From an uncultured Enterobacteriaceae bacterium (GTDB taxonomy: Bacteria > Pseudomonadota > Gammaproteobacteria > Burkholderiales > SG8-39), in the NCBI GenBank assembly GCA_964400745.1, contig CAYNVY010000002.1, forward strand, positions 5,195 through 69,194: a stretch of DNA of 64,000 nucleotides. The letters are read 5' to 3'. Shown here piece by piece: positions 222 to 64,000 of the stretch. Position numbers and translations under genes: made by a program. The notes under the pieces were generated by a model. The model worked only from the letters and a program-made list of their open reading frames with translations. It searched no databases and was not told the origin of the DNA. Position 1 is the first letter of the stretch, and the number at the start of each line of letters is the position of its first letter.

Positions 222-599
222 TTATCGTCCAAGCATCCGCAGCATATGCGGGCCGAACACGACGATACCCGCGATCGCCGCGCCGATCGCCGCAACCAGC
301 ACCGCTCCGGCCGCTACGTCCTTGGCCCGGGCTGCGAGCGGGTGCCGCTCGGGGGAGGCCAGGTCGACCACGAATTCGACCGCGGTATTGAGCGCCTCGG
401 CCGCCCATACGCAGCCGATCGCCAGCGCGATCAGCGCCCACTCAGCGGGAGAGATGCGCAGGAATGCTCCTGCTCCCACGACGAGGACCGACGCCACCGC
501 GTGTATCCTGGCGTTGGGCTGGGTCTGCAGCAGCACCTTCAGACCGCGAAATGCGTGGCCGAAACTGCGCAGGCGTTCGCTCAAGTAGGGGAAGGGCAT
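222..599 (-). CDS. dgkA: Diacylglycerol/undecaprenol kinase (prokaryotic DgkA family)
   Basis: 125-aa hydrophobic ORF with family motifs SFGHAFRGL, AEALNTAVEFVVDL and AKDVAAGAVL. Confidence 0.9.
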   Translation of the reverse strand: MPFPYLSERLRSFGHAFRGLKVLLQTQPNARIHAVASVLVVGAGAFLRISPAEWALIALAIGCVWAAEALNTAVEFVVDLASPERHPLAARAKDVAAGAVLVAAIGAAIAGIVVFGPHMLRMLGR

Positions 600-1448: not shown

Positions 1449-2279
1449 ATGCATCGTTCATTCTGGGTGGCAATGTGTTTTGGATTGTGGACCCTGCTCG
1501 CGGCGCCTTTCGCGTTTGCCAACGGGGTTTATCAAAGCGTCACCGGCGACGTGAAAGCGGCTTCGGGGACAGCGGCGCCGGCAAGCGTTGCGAGAAACCA
1601 GCGCGTACTCCCGGGGACGACCGTCACCACCGGACCCGGCGCCCAGGCCATCATCCGATTCGATGACGGGCACGCCGTCGTGCTCAACGAAAATTCGGAA
1701 TTCCGCATCAATCAATACAGTTTCGACAAGGACAAGCCGCAAAGCGACAACATCGCAGTGCAGATCCTCAGAGGCGCCCTGCGTTCGGTCAGCGGCCTGA
1801 TCGCCACGAGAAGCCGCACCGCATTCGCACTGGTTGCACCGCAGGCGACCATAGGCATACGCGGCACCGACTTCATGATCGCGCTGGTCAATCCGGCCTA
1901 TCTTTCGGTGATTCAGGGCTCGATCGCCGCGACCAACGCCGCTGGGACGGCGACGTTCGCTGCCGGCGCAACGGCGACGGTGGCATCCTCCGCCGCCTTG
2001 GCCGTGGCCATTCCCGCGTCTTCGCTACCTGCTTCGGTGGCGGCATCGTTCAACAGCATGAGTTCTGTGGCAATCGGTGCCGCCGGCGCGGGCGCCGGCG
2101 GTGCGGGTGGGGCCAGCGCGGCGACGGGCGCAGCAGCCGGTGGGATCACGGCAGGCATGGTTGCAGCCGGTATCGCGGCGGTCGGCGTGGTCGCGGCAGC
2201 CACTTCCGATTCAACCGAGAACCAGTCGGTCAGTTCTCCGGCACCGAGTGGCACTACGGGAACGACCGGTACGAAATAG
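1449..2279 (+). CDS. Secreted FecR-domain protein with a YjbE-like C-terminal tail
   Basis: Signal peptide ending AFAFA. FecR-like beta domain (VTTGPGAQAIIRFDDG...LNENSEFRI...ILRGALRSVSG...ATIGIRGTDF). Ala/Gly-rich linker, hydrophobic segment, ending GTTGTTGTK. Confidence 0.85.
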   Translation: MHRSFWVAMCFGLWTLLAAPFAFANGVYQSVTGDVKAASGTAAPASVARNQRVLPGTTVTTGPGAQAIIRFDDGHAVVLNENSEFRINQYSFDKDKPQSDNIAVQILRGALRSVSGLIATRSRTAFALVAPQATIGIRGTDFMIALVNPAYLSVIQGSIAATNAAGTATFAAGATATVASSAALAVAIPASSLPASVAASFNSMSSVAIGAAGAGAGGAGGASAATGAAAGGITAGMVAAGIAAVGVVAAATSDSTENQSVSSPAPSGTTGTTGTK

Positions 2280-2405: not shown

Positions 2406-2834
2406 TCAGATACACGGCGTCCACTCCGTCGCGTCCGACCATACGGTCGCGCCTTTGACCAGGGGTTTGTCGTCGACCACATGCGGTTGCCGGCCTGGAT
2501 CGGCTATGCGCACGCCGATGCGGTCCGCTCTTACTTCGATCACCTCGCCGCGGATCCAGTCGCGGACCGCGATGCCGACCACCAAGGCGCGGCAGACCTT
2601 TACACCCGGCCTTCCGACCGCAACCAGCGCCTCGGCTTTCGCCCGCGCCTGAGCGATCGACATCGGCGTCGGCACGCAGCGCGGATCGAGGGGCGCGGAA
2701 CCCGAAATGCGACACGCGGCTTGCGCGCCCGCCACAGGTTGCGCGTCGGCCGCAGTTTGCGCACTGGCCCCATGCGGAAACGCCGCCATCGAGAAGCAGC
2801 TCGCAAGCAAAGCGCGCATCAGCGTCACCCGCAT
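2406..2834 (-). CDS. Hypothetical exported protein with four Cys in the mature part
   Basis: Signal peptide ending GASA-Q and a beta-rich C-terminal domain ending WTPCI. I chose the ATG at 2834; the ORF track starts at 2948. Confidence 0.6.
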   Translation of the reverse strand: MRVTLMRALLASCFSMAAFPHGASAQTAADAQPVAGAQAACRISGSAPLDPRCVPTPMSIAQARAKAEALVAVGRPGVKVCRALVVGIAVRDWIRGEVIEVRADRIGVRIADPGRQPHVVDDKPLVKGATVWSDATEWTPCI

Positions 2835-3087
2835 ACAGCCAATGAAGCGAGCGCCGAATGGTATGAGGATCACGTAACGCTCCGCATAATTGAGGCAATG
2901 CATCTGAAATGTCGGCATAGGCATCCGATATTTCACAAAATTCGGCACTAGAGGCTAGGAACCAAGACGATAGGAACGGACGTGCCCTGCCCGCCTTGGA
3001 GTTCTGTATTTCTCAGGTAACCGATAGCGGCACAGCTACTTCTCGCAGAGAAAGCGCGTCGAAAAACGCCGGGTAAGCCTATAAGCC

Positions 3088-3498
3088 TCACGGAATAAAA
3101 TTCTCCAGCCCGGCCCCCGAGCGCAAGCCGTCGATGCTCTTGAAATGCGCGTCTAGCGTCAGCAACGCGGCACTATGCTCCAGGCTGCTGGCAGCAATCC
3201 ACAGGTCGTTGGTGGGAATGGGCTGGCCTTTGCGGCGCAGCGCCGCATAGACCAGCGCGTAAATATCGGCCGTGGCGGCAGTGCTGGGCACCACCTGCAC
3301 CCTGGTCGCGTTAAGAAACTGTGCCAGCTCGCCGCGATTGGCGCTCTCCCGCCCACCCGCGGCAAAGCCTGCCAACAGTTCACCCAACACGGTGGCGCAC
3401 ACAATGATGCTCGGCGCGTACTGCAGCACACCTAAAACCCGCTCGTCGCCGCGCTTGAACGCCGCGTAGGCGTTGGTGTCCAGCGCGATCGGGCGCAT
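3088..3498 (-). CDS. vapC: Type II toxin-antitoxin VapC (PIN-domain) toxin
   Basis: PIN motifs IALDTNAY, VLGELLAG, PIPTNDLWIAA and LLTLDAHF. Confidence 0.92.
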   Translation of the reverse strand: MRPIALDTNAYAAFKRGDERVLGVLQYAPSIIVCATVLGELLAGFAAGGRESANRGELAQFLNATRVQVVPSTAATADIYALVYAALRRKGQPIPTNDLWIAASSLEHSAALLTLDAHFKSIDGLRSGAGLENFIP

Positions 3499-3501
3499 CG
3501 C

Positions 3502-3762
3502 CTAAGAACCCCAAAGCGCCGCATCGACCTCGGCAAAGGCGGCAGTGCCTTGCTCAAAAGCCTGTGCGTCTGCGTCGCTCCAAGTGCCGGCGAGCGCATC
3601 AAGGTCGTCGAATTTCCGCAACGCTTGCGGCTGGGCTGTTGTGTCATTGCCCTGCAACAGGCGTACGACCAAACTGTTAAGACTACTGCCCTCCTGCTCT
3701 GCCTGAAGCTTGAGCCGGGCCAGCGCCTTGTCGTCCAATCCGCGAATGCTCATCGTCGCCAT
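3502..3762 (-). CDS. Ribbon-helix-helix antitoxin (VapB/FitA-like)
   Basis: 86 aa, MATMSIRGLDD...LKLQAEQEGSSLNSLV RHH pattern, acidic C-terminus, directly upstream of the PIN toxin. Confidence 0.85.
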   Translation of the reverse strand: MATMSIRGLDDKALARLKLQAEQEGSSLNSLVVRLLQGNDTTAQPQALRKFDDLDALAGTWSDADAQAFEQGTAAFAEVDAALWGS

Positions 3763-3894: not shown

Positions 3895-6800
3895 TCAATT
3901 CAACTCCCAAGCCACATTCACCCCCTGCGGATGGATCATTACCCTTGGCGCGCCTTTCCTGGGTGCGCGCGAGGCTTCCCAGAACACTTTTCCGATTCCG
4001 TAGCCGAGCAGGCTGCCGGCCACGGTATCGGACACCCAGTGCTGGCGGCTGCCGACGCGGGCGAGATTGGTGAGGGCGGCGACGCCGTAGAGCCAAGGCA
4101 TGTCGTATTGCTCCGCGAAAGGGGTTACGACCGCCCAGGCGACGGTGGTATGGCCGGACGGAAACGAGTCGTATCCGTCGGTTCCAGAGAAGGCCTTGAA
4201 TTCGCGATTACCAAGCTCATTTCCAGGTCTTGCACGGCCGGTAAGGGCTTTCAGCCCAGTCACCGCGATTAAGGCCGTGCCGCCTGCTTCCAGCGCTGCA
4301 TAGCCGGTGCGCGAACGCACCGGATCGCTGCCGTCCAGCGCCGCCACACCGGCACCGGCGATCGCCAGCCAGGGCAGCGCATTGCCAACCTTGTTCATGC
4401 CTTTCAACCAGCGGTTATCGGCATGATCCCTGGCAAAGTCGTCGCTGCGCCGATCAAGCGCGGCGCTCGCGAGCACCATGCCGGTCCCGACGACGCCGGC
4501 GCGCAGCCAGTTCGTATCCGCGGCCACGCGCGCCGAATCGGCAAAATCGCCGGCCAGTCGATTGACCGTACCGGGCACGGGCTGTAGCAATTCCGCAAGC
4601 TGCGTTGCTGGTGCGTCTGTCTCGCGGTCGTCCAGCCGGGCGAGCGGATCGCGCTCACTCACCGACGGATTGAGGTATTCGACCGCGACCGCATCCGCCA
4701 GGCCCGCGCGGCCGATTGCGCCGTTCAAGTAGCGCTCCAGTCGCAGCAGATCGACGAATTCGTAGCGCACCACCGGGTCGGTGAATAGCGCCAGCGTGAC
4801 GCGCAGCTCGCGCATATCCAGGGGGCCGAGCTTCAGCGCCGTGCGCGCCACGCGCCCGATGGCGCGGCTGACCGGGGACAGATTGTTGGTCGACAACGCA
4901 ATCGACAATCGATGCGAACTATCGTACGAAACCTTGATATTGCGGAACTCCTGCCGGTACAAGGCCTCGACCAGGCGCTGCTCGTAGCCTTGCGCATCGG
5001 CGGCCCATTGCTCCGTCGCCGGCTTCGGCAACACGCTGGCAAATAGATCAGGCCCTTTGGGCGGGGGCGTCCACGTCTCGCGCCGGTCCGAGGGGATGGC
5101 GGCATGGTTCGGTGTGGGCGCGGCCCTGATGCTCAAGGTGCGATCGTCGCGCAGATTGGTCAGATCGTACAGGCCGGTTCGCGCGAGCATGGCGCCACCG
5201 TCGCGGGTGAGCGGCTTCCAGATGAAATTCGCCGTCGTGCCGCTGGAGCGTGTAAGGAAAGCGTCGAACGGAAGACTCAGGAAGATGCCCTTGTCGAAAC
5301 TGCCTTCGCCGAATTGTTCCGACGACATATTCGTCTTGGTGAAAAATCCGCCGAGCGCGACGCCGTTCTCGAACACACGCGAGACCTGCACTGTCGCTCC
5401 GATGTCTTTCGCAAGATAGCGGCCGACGCTCAGATTCGCCATCACGTTGTTCCACCCTGTATCCCAATATAGGGTGGCATGTCCTGTTGCCACACGATAG
5501 CCCGTTTGCTCCTCGGCCTTGTCAAACCCGAAGTCCTGCCTGAAATTGCGCTGCTGCACCGCGTTCACGTCCACGCCGAACGCCACCCGGCTGGCGAACG
5601 GCCGGTACAGCCACTCGCCGCCTACCCCCGCGAACATGTCCTCGATGTAGCCGCCGTAGAGGCTGTAGTACTGATTCTTGTCGAATCTGCCCATGTGGGT
5701 AAGCTGCAGATTCGGCATGGTCAGCGGCCCGTAGGTCAGGTATTCGCGCAGATGTGTCCGCACCCTGGGCGCGCCGATACTGCTGGTCGGCGGGTCGTAG
5801 CGAAATTTGTCGTAGTTGTCCAGCAGACGCAGGCGCAGGCTGCCTTGCAGCCATGTGTTGTCGCCGAGCCGCAGCTTCACCCGCTCCAAGGCGGATAGCT
5901 GATACAACACAAAGCCGTCCGGCCCGCCCAGCGTATGCCGGTAGTCCGGTCCCAGATTCGATTCGAAGCGCGGCCGGACGGACTGATACAGCGCGGATTG
6001 CGCGGCAGTCTGTCCCGGTGAACGCGCGATGATCGCCTCGCGTTGCTCGTGCAACGGCAATGGCCGGATCTGCTGCGCGACCCAGGCGTCGCGGTCGATC
6101 ACGTGTTCCGCCATATCGACTCCGCCCTCGCTGTAGGCGAGGACGAAACGATCCACCGCTGCCGGGGCATCGCGGTGCAGCACCGCAGCGACCCGATCGG
6201 TGCGCTCGCGCCAAAAGCGGGCCCGGGCGCCGTCTATTTCCAGCCGGATTTCACGTCCGAATTGCTCGATGCGCTGGACACGCCATTGGCTCTGAATCTC
6301 GATATCACGCGTGGTCGCCGCCCAGTCCGGCGCCTTCTGCGCACGCATGGACGTCACCGGCACGCGCGGAGGATCGCTCAATTTGAGCATGCTGATGCCG
6401 TCCAGCTGCGTATGCAAAGTGATGCCCAGCATCGCGGTATTGCCGCGCTCCACACCCAGCGTCACATCGACCGATCGATTCGCGCGATAAACCGCGCCGA
6501 AGTTCCAGGGCGAGCTTTGGCGCAGATTGTTGGACTGCGGCTCGTGCTGGTAATCGTTGCCGTCGTACTCAAGTTTCAGAATCAGCGGCTTCCAGGGCGT
6601 CTGGTATTGCACCCCACCGAACAGCGCAGTCGGCCCTCTGAAATAACTATTGAGCGCGAAATTGCCGCCTTGACCGGTGTCGGCCTTGCGCGTATCGAAT
6701 GCAGAGCTAATGCCCGATAGCGGATTGCGCAGATTGCCGCGGCCGCCGACGTAGCCCCAACCCAAGCCTAGGCTCCAGTCGAACGCGCCAGTGCGCTTGC

Positions 6801-7992
6801 TCGCCACCAGGTACTCCCCCGAGAACAGCCCGGTTCCGGCTATGTCCCGCAGTCCGACCGCGACTTGCGGGACATAGGCCGATTCAGTTACAAGCCGGAA
6901 CTTGGCGTCCAGGCTCTTGTCTTTGTACGCCTGGCTTCCGCTCAATGCCTCCGAACCGTATGGGATATTGCTCACATTGGTATAGCGAAACCCCGCCTCC
7001 AGCCAGTCGAACGGCTGAAACATGATGTTGCCTTGCGTGTAGGGATAGGCCCGGCTCATATTGAACGTGAAATGGCCGGTGTTCTGCATCCTGGCGCTCG
7101 GTGTCTGTAGAAGTCCTGCGCCGCCCCAGTCGCTCGCCGTCACTACCAGACTTCTGGATCGCGCCGGGATGGTTTGACTATTCATCTGCAAGGCAACAGT
7201 TTCGTTTTGCCCAGCGGCAGGATCAGCCGCCGGCCCCTGCGTCGCCAAGAACGAGATCAGCCTGTACGAAAACGCCTCCGGCCAGCCACCGTCCCGAGGC
7301 GGAGCCCAGATCCACGCTCCCGGCGCAGGCTCGTCCTGCGCTTCAGAATTCCACAACCCGGCACCGAACCGCTGCACTCTCCCATCCGGCTGCGCCACCC
7401 ACGCCCAGTCCACACCCTGCCAGGTCCCCGGGCTGCAGGCCCTGACATAGGCTATCGCTTCACTCCCGGGGGTATGCATCACTGCGCAGCGCGAACCGCC
7501 CGCAGTCACTACCGTCACGCTGCGCGGACGCTCAGGCAAGACCACGCTATGCCCAGGCTCTAGAATCGGATCGCGGTTCGGATTTGCCTGCAACCAGCGC
7601 GCGTCCGGCACCGCCACCGGGACTCTCCCGGTGACCGGCAGTGCGGCTATCCATCCCCGCAACCGCGCCGCAGTTTCCGCGTCAACTCTGAGTCCACCGA
7701 CCTGCCCCGAAAGGCGCCTGAGCAGATCAAGTCGCAACTCACCCTGCGAAGGCCTCTCGCCCGGCACGCGCCAACTCAATCCAAGCGGGTAGGCATTCGG
7801 CGTGACCGGCTGCTCCAGCAGCCAGTCGCTCAGCCGTCTAGGCGCACCCTGTCCAATTACAAACGACGGAAAAGAGACAAGTAACGCAGTAATCGCTATG
7901 GTAAGTAGTCGCGGGGGCGCGCTCGCGCCCTGAAAGAAGTCCCCTTGGGGGGCTCGCGAATATCGTCTAGCGTCAGCAAAGCCGGATTTCAT
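3895..7992 (-). CDS. Fusion protein: GfcC/YjbG domain + YjbH/GfcD outer-membrane barrel protein + PAP2 phosphatase domain
   Basis: GfcC-like N-part (LPVTGRVPV...NPNRDPILEPG...WAWVAQPDG...EPAPGAWIW). YjbH signatures SDWGGAGLLQTPSARM, YKDKSLDAK, FGEGSFDKG, WKPLTRDGG. PAP2 motifs KALTGRARP, SFPSGH, ARVGSRQHWVSD. Start set at the TAATG overlap with an AGAGG RBS. Confidence 0.88.
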   Translation of the reverse strand: MKSGFADARRYSRAPQGDFFQGASAPPRLLTIAITALLVSFPSFVIGQGAPRRLSDWLLEQPVTPNAYPLGLSWRVPGERPSQGELRLDLLRRLSGQVGGLRVDAETAARLRGWIAALPVTGRVPVAVPDARWLQANPNRDPILEPGHSVVLPERPRSVTVVTAGGSRCAVMHTPGSEAIAYVRACSPGTWQGVDWAWVAQPDGRVQRFGAGLWNSEAQDEPAPGAWIWAPPRDGGWPEAFSYRLISFLATQGPAADPAAGQNETVALQMNSQTIPARSRSLVVTASDWGGAGLLQTPSARMQNTGHFTFNMSRAYPYTQGNIMFQPFDWLEAGFRYTNVSNIPYGSEALSGSQAYKDKSLDAKFRLVTESAYVPQVAVGLRDIAGTGLFSGEYLVASKRTGAFDWSLGLGWGYVGGRGNLRNPLSGISSAFDTRKADTGQGGNFALNSYFRGPTALFGGVQYQTPWKPLILKLEYDGNDYQHEPQSNNLRQSSPWNFGAVYRANRSVDVTLGVERGNTAMLGITLHTQLDGISMLKLSDPPRVPVTSMRAQKAPDWAATTRDIEIQSQWRVQRIEQFGREIRLEIDGARARFWRERTDRVAAVLHRDAPAAVDRFVLAYSEGGVDMAEHVIDRDAWVAQQIRPLPLHEQREAIIARSPGQTAAQSALYQSVRPRFESNLGPDYRHTLGGPDGFVLYQLSALERVKLRLGDNTWLQGSLRLRLLDNYDKFRYDPPTSSIGAPRVRTHLREYLTYGPLTMPNLQLTHMGRFDKNQYYSLYGGYIEDMFAGVGGEWLYRPFASRVAFGVDVNAVQQRNFRQDFGFDKAEEQTGYRVATGHATLYWDTGWNNVMANLSVGRYLAKDIGATVQVSRVFENGVALGGFFTKTNMSSEQFGEGSFDKGIFLSLPFDAFLTRSSGTTANFIWKPLTRDGGAMLARTGLYDLTNLRDDRTLSIRAAPTPNHAAIPSDRRETWTPPPKGPDLFASVLPKPATEQWAADAQGYEQRLVEALYRQEFRNIKVSYDSSHRLSIALSTNNLSPVSRAIGRVARTALKLGPLDMRELRVTLALFTDPVVRYEFVDLLRLERYLNGAIGRAGLADAVAVEYLNPSVSERDPLARLDDRETDAPATQLAELLQPVPGTVNRLAGDFADSARVAADTNWLRAGVVGTGMVLASAALDRRSDDFARDHADNRWLKGMNKVGNALPWLAIAGAGVAALDGSDPVRSRTGYAALEAGGTALIAVTGLKALTGRARPGNELGNREFKAFSGTDGYDSFPSGHTTVAWAVVTPFAEQYDMPWLYGVAALTNLARVGSRQHWVSDTVAGSLLGYGIGKVFWEASRAPRKGAPRVMIHPQGVNVAWELN

Positions 7993-8726
7993 TACCTCTT
8001 CCCAACCACACTCTGCTCCTGCACCGGCCACCGCTGCCAGCTAAAACACAGCCCCTTCTCCAAGCACTGCTCGCCATAAACGACCACTTCCTTCCCATCC
8101 TGCATTTCCACCGCGTACCGCGCCGGCGGCAACACCTCATTGCGGTCAACGCCTCCCGCTTCCAGTCGCTCCTCAAACCAGATAAAACCTTGCGGATCCA
8201 GCCCCTGCAAATCGCTCTTCCGTGGTTGCGACACTACACGCACCGACATCGCATCCCGCACGCCCAAGCGATACCCCGGCATCACATCCCGCACGCGATT
8301 CCAGCGATGCGCCTGATCGCTTCGCGCCAGCGCTGACCACGACGGAAGCGCAGGCATAGAGACGCTGCGCCATTCGGTAGTGAGGCCAGTCGCACCGACT
8401 AGTCGACCATTTTGCAGGCGCAACACTTCCCGCTCGGCGCTGTACCAGACTTCTACTGGCCCCGACGAGTCGACATCCTCATAGCCGAGCGCAAGCAAGA
8501 CCACTCGGCCGGCAATAGTAAGCCTGAGATAGCGAAAATTCGGATTGAGGCGAGCGCTCGCGACGTTATCCGCGCCACCGGCGGCTTGGCGCAGGGTTTG
8601 CAGCATCGAATTGCTGGCGGGAGAACAAGAGGCCAGGGCAACAAGCGACGAAATTATCGCCGCCCGTACCACCGTGGCGATATCGGTAGAAGATCGAGGT
8701 TTTCCGGAAGCAGGCATTGGCGGCAT
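7992..8726 (-). CDS. YjbF/GfcB-family outer-membrane lipoprotein
   Basis: Lipobox LASC. YjbF-like motifs VVLLALGY and WYSAEREVLRLQNGRLVGATGL. Lies between the yjbE-like and yjbGH-like genes. Confidence 0.85.
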   Translation of the reverse strand: MPPMPASGKPRSSTDIATVVRAAIISSLVALASCSPASNSMLQTLRQAAGGADNVASARLNPNFRYLRLTIAGRVVLLALGYEDVDSSGPVEVWYSAEREVLRLQNGRLVGATGLTTEWRSVSMPALPSWSALARSDQAHRWNRVRDVMPGYRLGVRDAMSVRVVSQPRKSDLQGLDPQGFIWFEERLEAGGVDRNEVLPPARYAVEMQDGKEVVVYGEQCLEKGLCFSWQRWPVQEQSVVGKR

Positions 8727-8910
8727 ATTGCGTCGCGGGCACTCAGCGCGACTTCGACCGAATACCCCACCGCACTAGAGTTCCTATCCAGATTCAGAAA
8801 AGGGCTGGCAACAACGGCTCAACACAAACATACCCGAGTTCCGATCCGTGGAACCCCTCTAGACTTGGCGGACTTGCCATAAAGCCAGCGAAATGTTGCG
8901 CCGGCAAAGC

Positions 8911-8951
8911 ACAAAAACAAAAAATCCTTGGCTAGTATCGCCAAGGATTTT
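8911..8951 (-). terminator. Rho-independent terminator after the yjbE-like gene
   Basis: 12-bp stem AAAATCCTTGGC/GCCAAGGATTTT (8921-8951) followed on the minus strand by a T-rich tract, 17 nt after the stop codon. Confidence 0.85.
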
Positions 8952-8968
8952 CTGGAAGAAATGACTGC

Positions 8969-9235
8969 TTACTTTGTACCGGTTGTGCCTGTCGTTCCAG
9001 CCGCAGCCGGAGTCGTGACTGCATCATCAGTGGAAGAAGATACCGCAGCCGCTACCGCAACTACCGCGACTGCCGCTGCAACCATCCCTGCCGTAATTCC
9101 GCCAACCGCAGCCGCGGATGCACCACCTGCGCCAGCACCACCAGCACCACCAGCACCACCCTGTCCTTGTTGTTGCGCCAATGCGCTACCTGCAACGAAC
9201 ATGGACGCAACCAAAACAGCTAGCGCTTTTTTCAT
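8969..9235 (-). CDS. Small secreted Gly/Ala/Thr-rich YjbE/GfcA-like protein
   Basis: 88 aa. Signal peptide ending SALA-Q, Gly-rich linker, hydrophobic segment and Thr-rich tail. Strong AGGAGA RBS. First gene of a yjbEFGH-like order. Confidence 0.8.
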   Translation of the reverse strand: MKKALAVLVASMFVAGSALAQQQGQGGAGGAGGAGAGGASAAAVGGITAGMVAAAVAVVAVAAAVSSSTDDAVTTPAAAGTTGTTGTK

Positions 9236-9302
9236 TTTATCTCTCCTGTTTATATCTAAGCAAAAACCGAATTTGAACGGCAAATTCAAATAGCGGAAGG
9301 GT

Positions 9303-9401
9303 CATTATCCACAAAAATCGGAAAGTTGCAAGCCAGGCAGAACCGCCCGAAACGCACTATCTAATTTGCATTATCCACAAGAAATTAGAATGTTGCAAGC
9401 C
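9303..9401 (-). promoter_or_regulatory. Tandem direct repeat; each copy is a TTGCAA-N16/17-GATAAT promoter-like element containing a perfect DnaA box
   Basis: Copies at 9303-9334 and 9369-9401. TTATCCACA at 9305-9313 and 9371-9379. Confidence 0.6.
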
Positions 9402-9465
9402 CGCAACAGACCATATTTCGGTAATTTTTGGGGTTTGTCGCGTAAAAACAACAAAGAAAACACCA

Positions 9466-9492
9466 AGAACATATAGAACATATAGAACATAC
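9466..9492. repeat. 9-bp tandem repeat, 3 copies
   Basis: AGAACATAT AGAACATAT AGAACATAC. Confidence 0.9.
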
Positions 9493-9565
9493 ACCGCAGG
9501 CTTGAGCGATAAGTGAGGGAAAGAAATCACGCCAATAGGTGCTTCTTGACCTTCCAATGCTGAGC

Positions 9566-10243
9566 CTACGCAAGCCCGAAGAATGGAAAAACAAGTATCG
9601 CATACATATACGCCACGAATTCACCGACCAACGTACGCACGCCCTGACTAGAATTCCACCAACATGTCGGATCATAGCTTCTATCTTCTACGGCGATGAT
9701 ACCCACTTGCGGACTTTCGCCAAATGCCCTCTGGAAAAGTAGCCTCGACCGTCTGGCGTGAACCCCGATGGACACAACATCAACGCCCTTGTGGATTGCA
9801 CCGTCTTGATACAACGAGGCTCTTAGGGCTAGTGCTGAAGCATATGTCCGATCGCGCCTCACCGACGGTGAGGGTACGGCTTGGACTACATCTTTACTCA
9901 TACCCATTCGCATCAATTTAGTAGCGCCTAATACAGCATACGTCCCGTATTCACGCATATCCTCTTCACTATCAGTGGGCCCCCCAGTAACGTAGAGCTT
10001 TTCGTAACGATGCTGCATGAATTCGTCTCTTGCAACTCTCAACACATATTCAGGCACCCATCCTTCAACCACCAATACCCCTGTTCGAACAGGATGGCTA
10101 ACAGCGAAAAACTGATGCGCTGTCAAAACTAAGATAGACAACAGCGCAACGCTCAGGATTGAGAAAAGGAAGACACCTCTAAGCGTAGGGATAGGAACTT
10201 CACGGTACCGAACCAGCCCCCAAAACGCCTTTTGGACTTTCAT
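9566..10243 (-). CDS. ElyC/SanA/YdcF (DUF218) family membrane protein
   Basis: N-terminal TM segment, VLVVEGW, YVTGG, RTYASA, HARRSRLLF and a C-terminal LVGEFVAY helix. Confidence 0.8.
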   Translation of the reverse strand: MKVQKAFWGLVRYREVPIPTLRGVFLFSILSVALLSILVLTAHQFFAVSHPVRTGVLVVEGWVPEYVLRVARDEFMQHRYEKLYVTGGPTDSEEDMREYGTYAVLGATKLMRMGMSKDVVQAVPSPSVRRDRTYASALALRASLYQDGAIHKGVDVVSIGVHARRSRLLFQRAFGESPQVGIIAVEDRSYDPTCWWNSSQGVRTLVGEFVAYMYAILVFPFFGLA

Positions 10244-10413
10244 CTTGACAGTAGATCTAGTCTAGGCCAACTGGTCAAGGTAGTACTGATGAATGTTCGA
10301 TCCAGAGTGCGGTATCATTTGCATATCTTCTTCACATATCACCATGTTTGCATCATGCCAAGCTAACTTGCATGGCTGCAATTCCTCAGTCAGATTCACT
10401 CTTAACACAAGCA

Positions 10414-11730
10414 ATGAAATTTAACACGTCCAATATGACTAAAAGACTAGCCCGCCTAGCATTGATACTCTTGATCGTCGGCTCCGTCACCGGCATCGGA
10501 CAACTCTTACGCAACGAGACTTACTACCCGCTTGTAGTCGTTGATGCCGCCGACAACCTTACGCTAACCTTTCTGCAACGGCCGACACCAGACAGCAACG
10601 CATGTTCGGTCCTGGCTGCCAATATTGCGAGTCTGATGCACGCAAACTGCCCTGGGTGCACGGTGACGAGGCAGCAGTGCACAGCGGATTTGACAACTGA
10701 TCTGACCGAGCTTCTTTCCGAAAGGCCTGTACCTTTGCCTTCTGCACGCATACTCAATGGTGTTATTGCGTATGCCCACCCCGATCCGAAGACCGCACTT
10801 GCGATCTGCCTAGAAAGCCAGCGACAATCTATTGCAAGCGAAAAGCAGGCCCAAGTTCTCTGCGATCCCGCCAATACGCCACGACCGCTTCCTTCGTCCT
10901 ACAACAAAACTGCCGAAGCAACACAAGCTGCGTTCCATTATTTTGCACAGTTCGTTTCCGTGTTTGCAGCTTGCCTTGGCATCTACCTTATCATTCAGTT
11001 CTTTTCTGTCCGCAATCCCACTGACACCCTCGGCACACCTGCTGCCACAGTAGTCGATCTCAAGATAACAAATCTCATCAAGCGCATTGCAGACATCCTG
11101 ATATCGCTCCTATTGCTTTCTGCTTTAATACCGATTCTCGTCCTCGTCTCTGCGCTCATTTTTGTCTTGGAAGGTTACCCCATCTTTTATGTTTCGAAGC
11201 GGTTCATTTCCTTGGATCAGTGCGTATCGATATTGAAATTCAGGACCATGGTCAAAGATGCCACCTCGCCCAAGTATCGCTTGCGCGAGCGCTTTATGAG
11301 AGACGGCTATCTCGACATCCCGCTGAATTGCGAGGTATATACCCCAATCGGAAGGTTCTTGGAGAGAACGCAACTCGTCGAAGTTCTCCAATTATTCAAT
11401 ATCCTCTTCCACGGGATGAGTCTGATAGGAAACCGCCCCCTTCCTCGCGAGAACATCATGCTGCTAAAGCAATTCCCCGGTTGGGAAGGCCGATTCTTCA
11501 GTCCCGCAGGCTTAACCGGATTGTCACAAGTCGTCGGGAAGTTGAACCAGACACCACTGCAGCGCATGGAACTGGAATGCCTGTATTCGAGCACTTACAA
11601 GGAAAAGGGTGGAAACATACTCCTGTGCGATTTATTTATTGCCTATTTTACCGTCAGGCTCCTATTTTTCGGAAAACCACTCTCGTTCGACGGAGCCAAA
11701 CGTCTGATAATGTCTGCAAACGGCAAGTGA
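10414..11730 (+). CDS. Sugar-transferase (monotopic PGT, Bac_transf) homolog with an N-terminal Cys-rich periplasmic domain and a degenerate catalytic dyad
   Basis: IKRIADILIS, LKFRTM, TPIGRFL, GMSLIGNRP, GLTGLSQV. The canonical LDELPQ reads LVEVLQ. Start uncertain (10369, 10414 or 10435). Confidence 0.8.
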   Translation: MKFNTSNMTKRLARLALILLIVGSVTGIGQLLRNETYYPLVVVDAADNLTLTFLQRPTPDSNACSVLAANIASLMHANCPGCTVTRQQCTADLTTDLTELLSERPVPLPSARILNGVIAYAHPDPKTALAICLESQRQSIASEKQAQVLCDPANTPRPLPSSYNKTAEATQAAFHYFAQFVSVFAACLGIYLIIQFFSVRNPTDTLGTPAATVVDLKITNLIKRIADILISLLLLSALIPILVLVSALIFVLEGYPIFYVSKRFISLDQCVSILKFRTMVKDATSPKYRLRERFMRDGYLDIPLNCEVYTPIGRFLERTQLVEVLQLFNILFHGMSLIGNRPLPRENIMLLKQFPGWEGRFFSPAGLTGLSQVVGKLNQTPLQRMELECLYSSTYKEKGGNILLCDLFIAYFTVRLLFFGKPLSFDGAKRLIMSANGK

Positions 11731-62279: not shown

Positions 62280-63488
62280 TCAGCGCAACGCGAGGTAACG
62301 CTTTATGGTCTTCAGTCGTTGCGCCTGTTCAGGATCGCTTCTTGCTTTTATCAGCGCTTCGCGAAAAAAGGCCAAAATTATCCCTGCAAGGCCCGCCGCC
62401 ATCGTCCAAAGTATTACAAGGATGGCACGCTTGGGTTTGGACTTGCGGTCCGGCTCGATCGCCTTGTCCATCACCTGGATGACGGAGGACTCCTTGGCTT
62501 CGTCGATTTTGGCGATTTCGTACTGCCTGGCGAGCAATTCGAAGATGACTTCGTGGTATTTGACGTTGCGCAGCAAACTGAGGCTGTCCGAAACTTGGCC
62601 GCTTGGGCTGTTTGTAGTAGCGTTGGTGCCGCCGACTCCTTCAATCTTGGCAAGTTCGCGTTTCAACGAAGCCAGTTCCTGTTGCGCCATTTGAAGGTCC
62701 GGATTGCGATCTGCGGCAAAGGAGCGCATGGCGCCAATTTGGACTTCTTTCACAGTAATCTGCCCACGCAAGCGTGCAGTTACTTCCACCATTGCTCGGC
62801 CCTGTTCGTCCACCTTTACCAGCCCGCCGGTTTGCAGGGCCTGCCTGGCCGCAGCCTCAGCCTTGGAAAGGTTGTCTTTCGCCAATGCAAACTGTCGCTC
62901 GAAGAAAAGGCGGCGCTGCGAAGCTTCGGTCACCGCTAGTATGCTGGTGAATTTTACGAGTTCGTCGATATAAGCATTGGCAAGTTCGGCTGCACGCTTG
63001 GTATCCTTGTCGTCTACTTCGACTGTAATCGTGCCATCTTTTTCTGACGTAATCTTGGTAACGCCTTCCAGAGCTTTGTACGCGTCCGAGGGGTGTTCAA
63101 TATCGATCTTCCAGGTCTTCATCAAATCAAAACGCTGGATCATGTTGTCTGCCACGGTACGGCTCTTGAGCATGGCAACGTAGAGATCGTTGGGACTCTT
63201 GAGACCCGCCGCTCCGCCCACCAATCCGGCGATCCCCCCAAGCTGCGCCAGCATCGCCGAGGCACTGGACTGGCTTTGCTGCGGCGGCAGAATCCTTGCG
63301 CTAGCAGTGTAGATGTTGGGCAATGTGAGGCTGTATGCAGCAACCGCTAATCCGACCACAAACGGCAGCCCGAGGACCAGTTTCTTGTGCTTGGCAAGGA
63401 CGATTAACAGATCGAGCAAGCTCATTTCGTCATCGCCAGTGCTAGCGTCGTGTATTGAGTCTTCTGGCAGGTTGGCGGATTCAATCAT
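62280..63488 (-). CDS. Wzz/GNVR-family polysaccharide chain-length regulator without kinase domain
   Basis: SLLDLL + TM1, YTASARILPP, coiled coil, VMDKAIEPDRKSKPKR + TM2. Confidence 0.88.
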   Translation of the reverse strand: MIESANLPEDSIHDASTGDDEMSLLDLLIVLAKHKKLVLGLPFVVGLAVAAYSLTLPNIYTASARILPPQQSQSSASAMLAQLGGIAGLVGGAAGLKSPNDLYVAMLKSRTVADNMIQRFDLMKTWKIDIEHPSDAYKALEGVTKITSEKDGTITVEVDDKDTKRAAELANAYIDELVKFTSILAVTEASQRRLFFERQFALAKDNLSKAEAAARQALQTGGLVKVDEQGRAMVEVTARLRGQITVKEVQIGAMRSFAADRNPDLQMAQQELASLKRELAKIEGVGGTNATTNSPSGQVSDSLSLLRNVKYHEVIFELLARQYEIAKIDEAKESSVIQVMDKAIEPDRKSKPKRAILVILWTMAAGLAGIILAFFREALIKARSDPEQAQRLKTIKRYLALR

Positions 63489-63576
63489 CTGGTCATTGGC
63501 AGCAATAGGTAAATATGGGATGGCGGGAGCAGTTGCGGACTCTAATCTCGGCGGAGGCGCCGCACCTCCACATTCT

Positions 63577-64000
63577 CTATTGCTTGATCACTTTCAAGGC
63601 TGCTGCGCCCAAGCCGAACTGATACAGAATCTGGCCATAGTCCTTAAGTACTTTCGTCCACGTCGTGCGCTCAAAATCTTCTGGCACTACGATAGTGTCA
63701 CCGGGCATCAGGCGTTCACCTTCAAAGCCCGCCATCAGCCATCCGGATTGGCGCTTGCTTATGACAGAGCCGTCGACCCGGAGCAGATACACGTCCGCCT
63801 TGTCGCCCATCCGGGACACGCCGCCGGCCTGGCGCAGGTAATCGGTCAGGCGCTTTTCCGGTCTGAACACAAACGCATTTTCGTTATAGACCGCGCCGAC
63901 GACGTTGATCGTGGATGGTTTGGAGGGAACAACAAAGCGATCGCTGTCCTCGAGCACAAGATCCGGGAGATCCTTGAGCCCTGCCGCATCGTCCGCCGGA
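63577..64000 (-). CDS. SLBB-domain polysaccharide export protein (Wza/KpsD/WbfF-like), 5' end outside the window
   Basis: INVVGAVYN, DYLRQAGG, LMPGDTIVVP and a C-terminal amphipathic helix. Confidence 0.85.
   Translation of the reverse strand, partial: PADDAAGLKDLPDLVLEDSDRFVVPSKPSTINVVGAVYNENAFVFRPEKRLTDYLRQAGGVSRMGDKADVYLLRVDGSVISKRQSGWLMAGFEGERLMPGDTIVVPEDFERTTWTKVLKDYGQILYQFGLGAAALKVIKQ

Follow-up and report, generated by a model that had tools for sequence, protein, structure and literature searches.

The closest described relatives of the protein considered here are GfcD (YmcA) and YjbH of Escherichia coli, which occur with GfcA, GfcB and GfcC (group 4 capsule, yjbEFGH) and combine a 12-strand and a 13-strand barrel with a middle domain. 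Their genes follow the order gfcA-gfcB-gfcC-gfcD with overlapping stop and start codons, and the locus lies at the end of a Wzy/Wzz/OPX cluster. The 13-strand barrel of GfcD has been described as open-sided, and the opening, through which lipid exit was simulated, has been proposed as a lipid exit (Fruet et al., PMC11494523). A fusion of GfcC with GfcD is already published as Burkholderia OtnG (PMC8592465). The way in which Wzy-dependent capsules are held on Gram-negative cells is described as unsettled (PMC12220298, PMC13621845). The stretch of DNA analysed here (the window) comprises 64,000 nucleotides of an uncultured bacterium placed in the Burkholderiales (assembly GCA_964400745.1, contig CAYNVY010000002.1, positions 5,195 to 69,194). 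It resembles the E. coli systems in gene order, double barrel and position within the cluster, but it encodes a protein in which GfcC is joined to GfcD and the C-terminus gains a second middle domain (M2), a PAP2 domain and a beta-hairpin.

The tripartite motif and helical fold of this PAP2 are shared with PgpB, YbjG, LpxT, Aquifex LpxE and YodM, which, however, are hydrophobic, free-standing inner-membrane proteins. Porphyromonas gingivalis LpxE is more similar in that a weakly hydrophobic PAP2 is carried on one chain with a predicted outer-membrane barrel; there, the PAP2 precedes a predicted 8-strand barrel, is linked to type IX secretion and has lipid A as substrate (PMC12704123), whereas in the window it follows the capsule double barrel. 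An earlier reading of the window from its letters alone (the sequence-only reading) had called a helical PAP2 on a barrel protein a topological puzzle, and P. gingivalis LpxE provides a precedent, itself predicted only. In the group 1 capsule locus galF-PAP2-wzi-wza-wzb-wzc, a PAP2 gene adjoins the gene of the attachment barrel but remains separate (PMC6128206), and a recurrent separate PAP2 in the Gfc block of Stenotrophomonas is treated as accessory (PMC13712831). PAP2 genes beside gfc and wzi have thus already been reported.

The fusion gene is a single open reading frame on the minus strand that runs from the ATG at 7992 to the stop codon at 3895 and encodes 1365 aa without interruption. 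Its ATG shares one base with the stop codon of gfcB (TAATG). Its parts, in window coordinates, are:

7852..7992, minus strand: N-terminus with a hydrophobic stretch at aa 29-47, by its sequence likely a Sec signal peptide
7228..7848, minus strand: GfcC/YjbG-like periplasmic domain, aa 49-255 (PF06251, 3P42 match, YjbG 28%)
6388..7137, minus strand: GfcD N-terminal barrel, modelled with 12 strands (PF06082, structure model)
5953..6357, minus strand: middle domain M1 of the E. coli-type YjbH (sequence comparison and structure model)
5143..5952, minus strand: GfcD C-terminal barrel, modelled with 13 strands, corresponding to the open-sided barrel of Fruet 2024 (structure model)
4618..5037, minus strand: second middle domain M2, aa ~986-1125, of the divergent YjbH subtype (second PF06082 match, bit scores, topology)
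3958..4527, minus strand: PAP2 domain with weakly hydrophobic helices, motifs at 4251-4225, 4161-4150 and 4059-4027 (Pfam, motifs, 5JKI)
3895..3945, minus strand: C-terminal beta-hairpin ending V-x-[LV]-x-W, plus the stop codon (conservation in relatives)

Pfam recognised Caps_syn_GfcC_C (PF06251) at aa 197-242 (E 1e-4; 22.8 bits at a cut-off of 20), a full-length YjbH (PF06082) at aa 286-946 (E 8e-238, 792 bits, model positions 2-657 of 658) and PAP2 at aa 1237-1340 (E 2e-14). The E. coli GfcC structure 3P42 matched aa 106-240 (E 0.001), and identity to the E. coli proteins amounted to 28% for YjbG and 40% over 679 residues for YjbH. The PAP2 motifs are complete, with K1248-x6-R1255-P1256, PSGH from P1278 to H1281, and R1312-x5-H1318-x3-D1322. 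The sequence-only reading had announced one uninterrupted GfcC-YjbH-PAP2 frame of about 1365 aa with the motifs KX6RP, PSGH and RX5HX3D; both claims are borne out, and its domain coordinates are correct to within a few tens of bases. Its three-part architecture, however, overlooked M2: the protein has four parts, because aa ~986-1125 form a second GfcD middle domain.

Taken together, the fusion is a real and conserved, apparently undescribed variant of known parts. Assembled contigs from four runs of one study were compared with the window and agree with it without differences. A contig of run X1, which was separately assembled but may be the source of the window DNA, spans 4000-9500 with zero differences, and contigs of run X2 bridge the join between GfcC and the barrel (6545-8200) and that between M2 and PAP2 (4298-5046); among the pieces listed, the join between barrel and M2 is bridged by X1 only. 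No RNA holder of the sequence was found among those listed. A search with aa 950-1365 gave 344 matches, of which 119 were listed besides the query. All of these 119 carry YjbH and PAP2, 102 have all six parts and 117 the full PAP2 motif, and the named relatives among the matches listed belong to the Burkholderiales. An assembly artefact, or a lone stop-codon loss absent in relatives, is the error that the sequence-only reading had feared. Although the exact protein forms a singleton cluster, the 119 full-length relatives with the same domain order, together with the concurring contigs, rule this explanation out for all practical purposes.

The distribution of the fusion was assessed in 401 genomes of the order, scored as fused or unfused by matching YjbH and PAP2 coordinates. 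YjbH was present in 43 of them, 31 with the fusion, 11 without and one with a fragment, and the 31 fused genomes cover 13 families and both YjbH subtypes. In a sample of the phylum (401 genomes, 50 with YjbH), the fusion occurred only in the three genomes of this order; none of the 47 YjbH genomes outside the order carried it, and the frames there reach at most 841 residues. The fusion is common in one order, with none found outside it in the sampled genomes, and is common to many betaproteobacteria. One contig titled Akkermansia muciniphila (L007) has a betaproteobacterial-type locus and is probably misbinned.

The structure prediction suggested by the sequence-only reading was run for aa 276-1365 on the 119-row alignment (predicted local distance difference test, pLDDT, 80; predicted template modelling score, pTM, 0.70). 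It places in order a 12-strand barrel, a middle domain, a 13-strand barrel, M2, the helical PAP2 with confident helices (pLDDT 75-91) and a two-strand hairpin. M2 shares the secondary-structure order of M1 in the model, and a second PF06082 match (model 255-375) in 14 relatives corresponds to it. An internal duplication of M1 was rejected as its source, since M2 scores 60-104 bits against 15 YjbH proteins of the divergent type but 2 bits against its own M1. The barrels, unlike M2, are E. coli-like, and three architectures were found: a divergent YjbH-PAP2 of ~940 aa without gfcB/C, GfcC-YjbH-PAP2 of ~1200 aa, and GfcC-YjbH-M2-PAP2 of ~1350-1500 aa. Therefore, the window protein is probably a chimera whose tail stems from a divergent YjbH-PAP2 gene. 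Most fused forms are without M2 and have ~30-60 residues between the YjbH and PAP2 matches. Loci of the divergent subtype without gfcB and gfcC were seen with or without PAP2 (L073, L075-L080, L082-L086, L089, L090), and other Gfc fusions (L118:7214-8644, L126:3925-5373, L127:1909-5373) join GfcB to GfcC or a multi-SLBB OPX protein to GfcC.

The beta-strand-like protein end noticed in the sequence-only reading agrees with a hairpin of low model confidence (pLDDT <50) whose C-terminal W is kept in 118 of the 119 listed relatives, with alternating hydrophobicity. The hairpin was also compared with the C-terminal beta-signal of outer-membrane proteins, a final barrel strand that closes with an aromatic residue: the W usually lies 1-3 residues before the protein end, and the hairpin strands of ~5 residues are unplaced in the model. 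A closure of the open barrel by the hairpin as a 14th strand was considered; no such pairing appears in the model, although at this confidence the hairpin may still pair in that way. With regard to the membrane face that the PAP2 active site would see, the signals conflict: the chain should end outside after the odd strand 13, yet M2 is of the periplasmic type.

The closest PAP2 structure is that of Bacillus subtilis YodM (5JKI; E 0.002, TM score 0.48 by target, 21% identity). However, YodM, PgpB, YbjG, LpxT and Aquifex LpxE reach only 1-15 bits against the profile of the clade to which the fusion PAP2 belongs. Across the 119 rows, the third position of PSGH holds G 69 times, R 48 times and I twice. 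As a crude sum of scale values, the mean of the five best 19-residue windows was 8.0 for the fusion, compared to 1.1 for PgpB, 1.1 for LpxT and 1.8 for YbjG (higher values are more polar), and the helices thus lack the hydrophobicity of inner-membrane insertion of the PgpB/YbjG/LpxT type. Clade members that stand alone begin with what resembles a signal peptide and close with the same hairpin, frequently with a final F or W. A widespread solo PAP2 with such a start and an aromatic-ended hairpin (L092-L102, L104, L106-L109) represents a possible outer-membrane PAP2 family.

Among the 150 best matches to the clade profile, 55 long proteins were scanned, of which 43 carry YjbH, seven carry Wzi and five neither. 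Furthermore, Wzi and PAP2 lie in one frame in 24 of 80 metagenome loci, three of which adjoin an SLBB-type OPX gene. Judged from sequence, a single PAP2 clade is joined to both of the unrelated barrels tied in the literature to capsule surface assembly, GfcD and Wzi, and the parallel fusion to Wzi strengthens the link of this PAP2 to the capsule surface. In a FastTree phylogeny, in which many "solo" rows are contig-end fragments, nearly all YjbH- and Wzi-fused domains fall into one 101-row group (support 90, not starred); the two labels are intermixed there, so that the tree does not set the count of fusion events. A Wzi-PAP2 fusion family was observed in OPX-Wzz loci (P0276, P0278, P0286, P0296, P0311, P0312, P0326; L189-L228).

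The functional interpretation depends in part on neighbouring genes of the window, which are:

222..599, minus strand: PF01219 kinase of the undecaprenol-kinase type known from Firmicutes; no further copy was found in the genome (Pfam, bit scores, tree)
1461..2279, plus strand: FecR-domain protein whose C-terminus nearly copies the GfcA tail (PF04773, local alignment to GfcA)
7992..8726, minus strand: gfcB/yjbF lipoprotein gene, its stop codon overlapping the fusion start (PF11102)
8969..9232, minus strand: gfcA-like gene with signal, Gly/Ala linker, Ala/Val helix and Thr-rich end (sequence, tail heuristic; no Pfam match)
62280..64000, minus strand: Wzz-type co-polymerase (62280-63488) and the end of the multi-SLBB OPX gene heading the cluster (Pfam)

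The kinase sits 3.3 kb downstream of the fusion and is, by its grouping with Firmicute dgkA/UdpK sequences, of the undecaprenol-kinase type; the dgkA of Staphylococcus aureus is an undecaprenol kinase (PMC5991675). An E. coli-type dgkA was not seen in the source genome, which is 88% complete. We surveyed such kinases in 61 chosen YjbH- or PAP2-positive genomes plus the window. In a 32-row tree (midpoint root, long-branch warning), the neighbour kinases form two lineages on the side of the ybeY-linked kinases from Bacillus, Staphylococcus and Brevibacillus; a 100/99 split separates this side from E. coli DgkA and the remaining copies in these genomes. The window lineage scores 84-89 bits to Firmicutes versus 43 to E. 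coli DgkA. Of the 31 fused genomes of the order sample, seven (five families) have a kinase no more than 5 kb from the fused gene, versus none of the 11 unfused ones, a difference that is not significant among non-independent kin (Fisher p=0.16). In six of the seven, the neighbour is an extra copy beside a dgkA elsewhere. Within the genus of the window, eight of 15 genomes have the kinase within 5 kb, and several others are cut by contig ends. Plasmid matches of the kinase were all non-enterobacterial. One locus (L227) holds uppS, such a kinase and a more distant hairpin PAP2 (44 bits), with wzi-OPX-wzz running divergently; in a Parabacteroides record, the kinase and hairpin PAP2 genes form a tandem. 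As a regular neighbour, uppS was rejected.

Based on these data, we suggest, with a probability of roughly 40%, that the fusion is an outer-membrane PAP2 phosphatase which clears undecaprenyl carrier at the capsule barrel. The observed part of this proposal consists of the architecture, the intact motifs, their conservation, the Wzi fusion, the polar helices and the neighbouring kinases. Assembly of the chain by the BAM machinery would place PAP2 next to the barrel in the outer membrane. Polymer made by Wzy/Wzz/OPX would still be attached to undecaprenyl diphosphate (Und-PP) on arrival at the open side of the 13-strand barrel. Once the glycan is released or handed on, PAP2 would convert stranded Und-PP or undecaprenyl phosphate to undecaprenol, which as a neutral lipid could return to the inner membrane and be re-phosphorylated by an undecaprenol-kinase-type enzyme, a pairing that we propose for some lineages only. 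LpxE-type PAP2s are reported to dephosphorylate Und-PP (PMC6581854). The carrier option was one of several named in the sequence-only reading, besides transfer to a lipid or the Thr-rich tail and remodelling of the anchor, and it gains support from the neighbouring undecaprenol-kinase-type genes.

A number of observations weigh against this proposal. PAP2 enzymes are promiscuous, and sequence cannot name their substrate. In the model, the hairpin and both linkers have pLDDT <50 and PAP2 is not docked on the barrel. Many free-standing clade members sit away from capsule loci, no kinase is found near 24 of the 31 fused genes, and uppS stands beside such a kinase in just two of all loci examined. 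The second kinase lineage scores nearly evenly (43-47 bits to Bacillus, 38 to E. coli DgkA), which does not tell its substrate apart. Moreover, undecaprenol has been called Gram-positive-restricted (PMC9876793), and a PAP2 of the clade was found within ~5-9 kb of none of 31 unfused YjbH loci by clade profile, motif pattern and single-sequence searches.

Those searches had been suggested by the sequence-only reading with a view to adjacent PAP2 genes in unfused loci. Such genes were indeed seen in two loci of genus g213, beside gfc, but they encode a different, inner-membrane-type PAP2 (1.7 bits to the clade). The Pfam scan covered 65 chosen neighbours and the other searches the rest; because the g213 PAP2 escaped both the clade profile and the pattern, further distant PAP2s may likewise have gone unseen. 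PAP2 as a universal missing Gfc partner is unsupported. Since none of the 47 genomes outside the order is fused and none of the 31 unfused loci has the clade, PAP2 is not needed by the E. coli-type Gfc, and the earlier idea that the fusion exposes Gfc chemistry in general is weakened. We therefore read the PAP2 step as a putative accessory in the capsule systems of this order and not as core Gfc.

GfcA-type tails bear on other explanations. A heuristic that looks for a Thr-rich end behind a helix of Ala, Val and Gly flagged tail genes in 30 of the 34 distinct fused loci (two loci present in duplicate were counted once) and also in many loci without the fusion. In 10 loci including the window, the tail ends a FecR-domain protein (besides the window L076, L077, L086, L132-L134, L142, L144, L145), and in divergent-type loci a FecR-tail gene often takes the gfcA position (Pfam confirmed for three). 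The FecR-tail proteins match LipL45, Lsa33 and the retention module of LapA weakly. This suggests that the GfcA-type tail may be a portable tag handled by GfcD and a candidate C-terminal sorting signal; Larson 2021 suggests that GfcA may be glycan-modified and sent to or exported by GfcD (PMC8592465). The tail alone does not make PAP2 the ligase, as it is found both in loci that have PAP2 and in loci that do not. Another, almost identical gfcA-like gene was seen after ychF, far from gfc loci (G000:C51:18936-19334).

It is conceivable, although somewhat unlikely, that the PAP2 acts like P. gingivalis LpxE as an outer-membrane phosphatase of lipid A (or phospholipid), the barrel being a vehicle and the surface charge being tuned to retain the capsule. 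The P. gingivalis enzyme, a lipid A 1-phosphatase, has a signal peptide, weakly hydrophobic PAP2 helices and a predicted barrel (PMC12704123), lipid A exit through the GfcD gate has been simulated (PMC11494523), and the clade members away from capsule loci would fit as well. NCBIfam assigned no family to the fusion, GfcA or the kinase; LpxE matches in relatives (E 8e-4 and 5e-3) lie far below the cut-off, and undecaprenyl-diphosphatase models, though also weakly matched, score equally well or better. In addition, lipid A as substrate would leave the extra undecaprenol-kinase-type gene or uppS beside the locus unexplained. We regard as unlikely an anchor-making phosphotransferase in which a phospho-His intermediate would move glycan-phosphate from Und-PP-glycan to a Thr of the GfcA tail or to a lipid, in the manner of LCP enzymes, with the kinase recycling the by-product. 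The fusion of the clade to two unrelated capsule-attachment barrels, the annotation of LpxT as a PAP2 transferase and the frequency of the tails, which would suit an acceptor or sorting tag, speak for it, but we know of no PAP2 attack on a glycan-bearing diphosphate. While the suggested glycan modification of GfcA (PMC8592465) and a group 4 anchor described as not known (PMC13621845) leave room for such an enzyme, GfcA-type genes are as common in unfused loci without such a PAP2, so that attachment cannot depend on PAP2 generally, and just two of the 24 Wzi-PAP2 loci have a flagged tail gene.

A more specific version of the transfer appears quite improbable: chains would exit through the open-sided barrel on Und-PP and be handed by the outer-membrane PAP2 to the Thr-rich GfcA-type tail, a sorting and anchoring tag that FecR cargo would also use, while undecaprenol would be salvaged by a kinase regarded as Gram-positive only. 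If true, Gram-negative bacteria would possess an equivalent of LCP ligases, and the group 4 anchor would be identified. Finally, the PAP2 might be a periplasmic or inner-membrane enzyme tethered by M2 and the linker, recycling Und-PP like PgpB or YbjG. The transmembrane PAP2 fold (5JKI), the periplasmic-type M2 and the disordered linker before PAP2 are compatible with this, as are the inner-membrane-type PAP2 beside gfc in g213 and Stenotrophomonas (PMC13712831) and the PAP2 before wzi in group 1 loci (PMC6128206). However, the helices are too polar for Sec insertion on the crude scale, and in the prevailing fused forms without M2 the gap is too short to span the periplasm, which makes a tether very unlikely.

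With respect to the wider locus, the order gfcA, gfcB, fusion confirms an operon with gfcA, gfcB and a fused gfcC. It forms the downstream end of a polysaccharide cluster of 55 kb, at the head of which stand the multi-SLBB OPX gene and wzz. Group 4 systems make a capsule identical to the O antigen and need GfcE-Etp-Etk; here OPX and Wzz are present, but no match to Wzx or Wzc/Etk was obtained in the cluster (9566-62000). The cluster holds nonulosonic-acid-type genes; NeuB and cytidylyltransferase genes occur twice each, genes for methyl-, amino- and sulfo-transferases are numerous, and there are an ABC transporter and a putative polymerase. On the opposite strand lies a sugar phosphotransferase whose Cys-containing N-terminal part is unusual (10348-11730), a DUF218 neighbour (9566-10243) is absent from the other loci examined, and the GC content falls to about 50% at 9-20 kb. 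Directly after the fusion gene, a FitA-like antitoxin and PIN toxin pair is inserted (3088-3762, minus strand), and a small, unannotated lipoprotein-like gene (2406-2948, plus strand) is kept beside the fusion in the genus and is MORN-fused in some relatives.

In the open-access literature, supplements aside, we found no paper on a YjbH/GfcD-PAP2 or Wzi-PAP2 fusion; such proteins might appear in Table S3 of PMC13712831 or in the supplements to Solan 2021 and to the OPX survey. PAP2 has no occurrence in the main texts of the latter two, YjbH is not mentioned in the available part of the Lipocone paper, and database entries of relatives are named plainly, e.g. "YjbH domain-containing protein". 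GfcD is without a demonstrated function, and a clade carried on GfcD and Wzi offers a catalytic residue and a short list of lipids. If the proposed clearing of undecaprenyl carrier is correct, undecaprenyl phosphates would reach the outer membrane and be salvaged there, a helical membrane enzyme would be built into the outer membrane on the tail of a barrel, and a missing chemical step would be added to capsule attachment.

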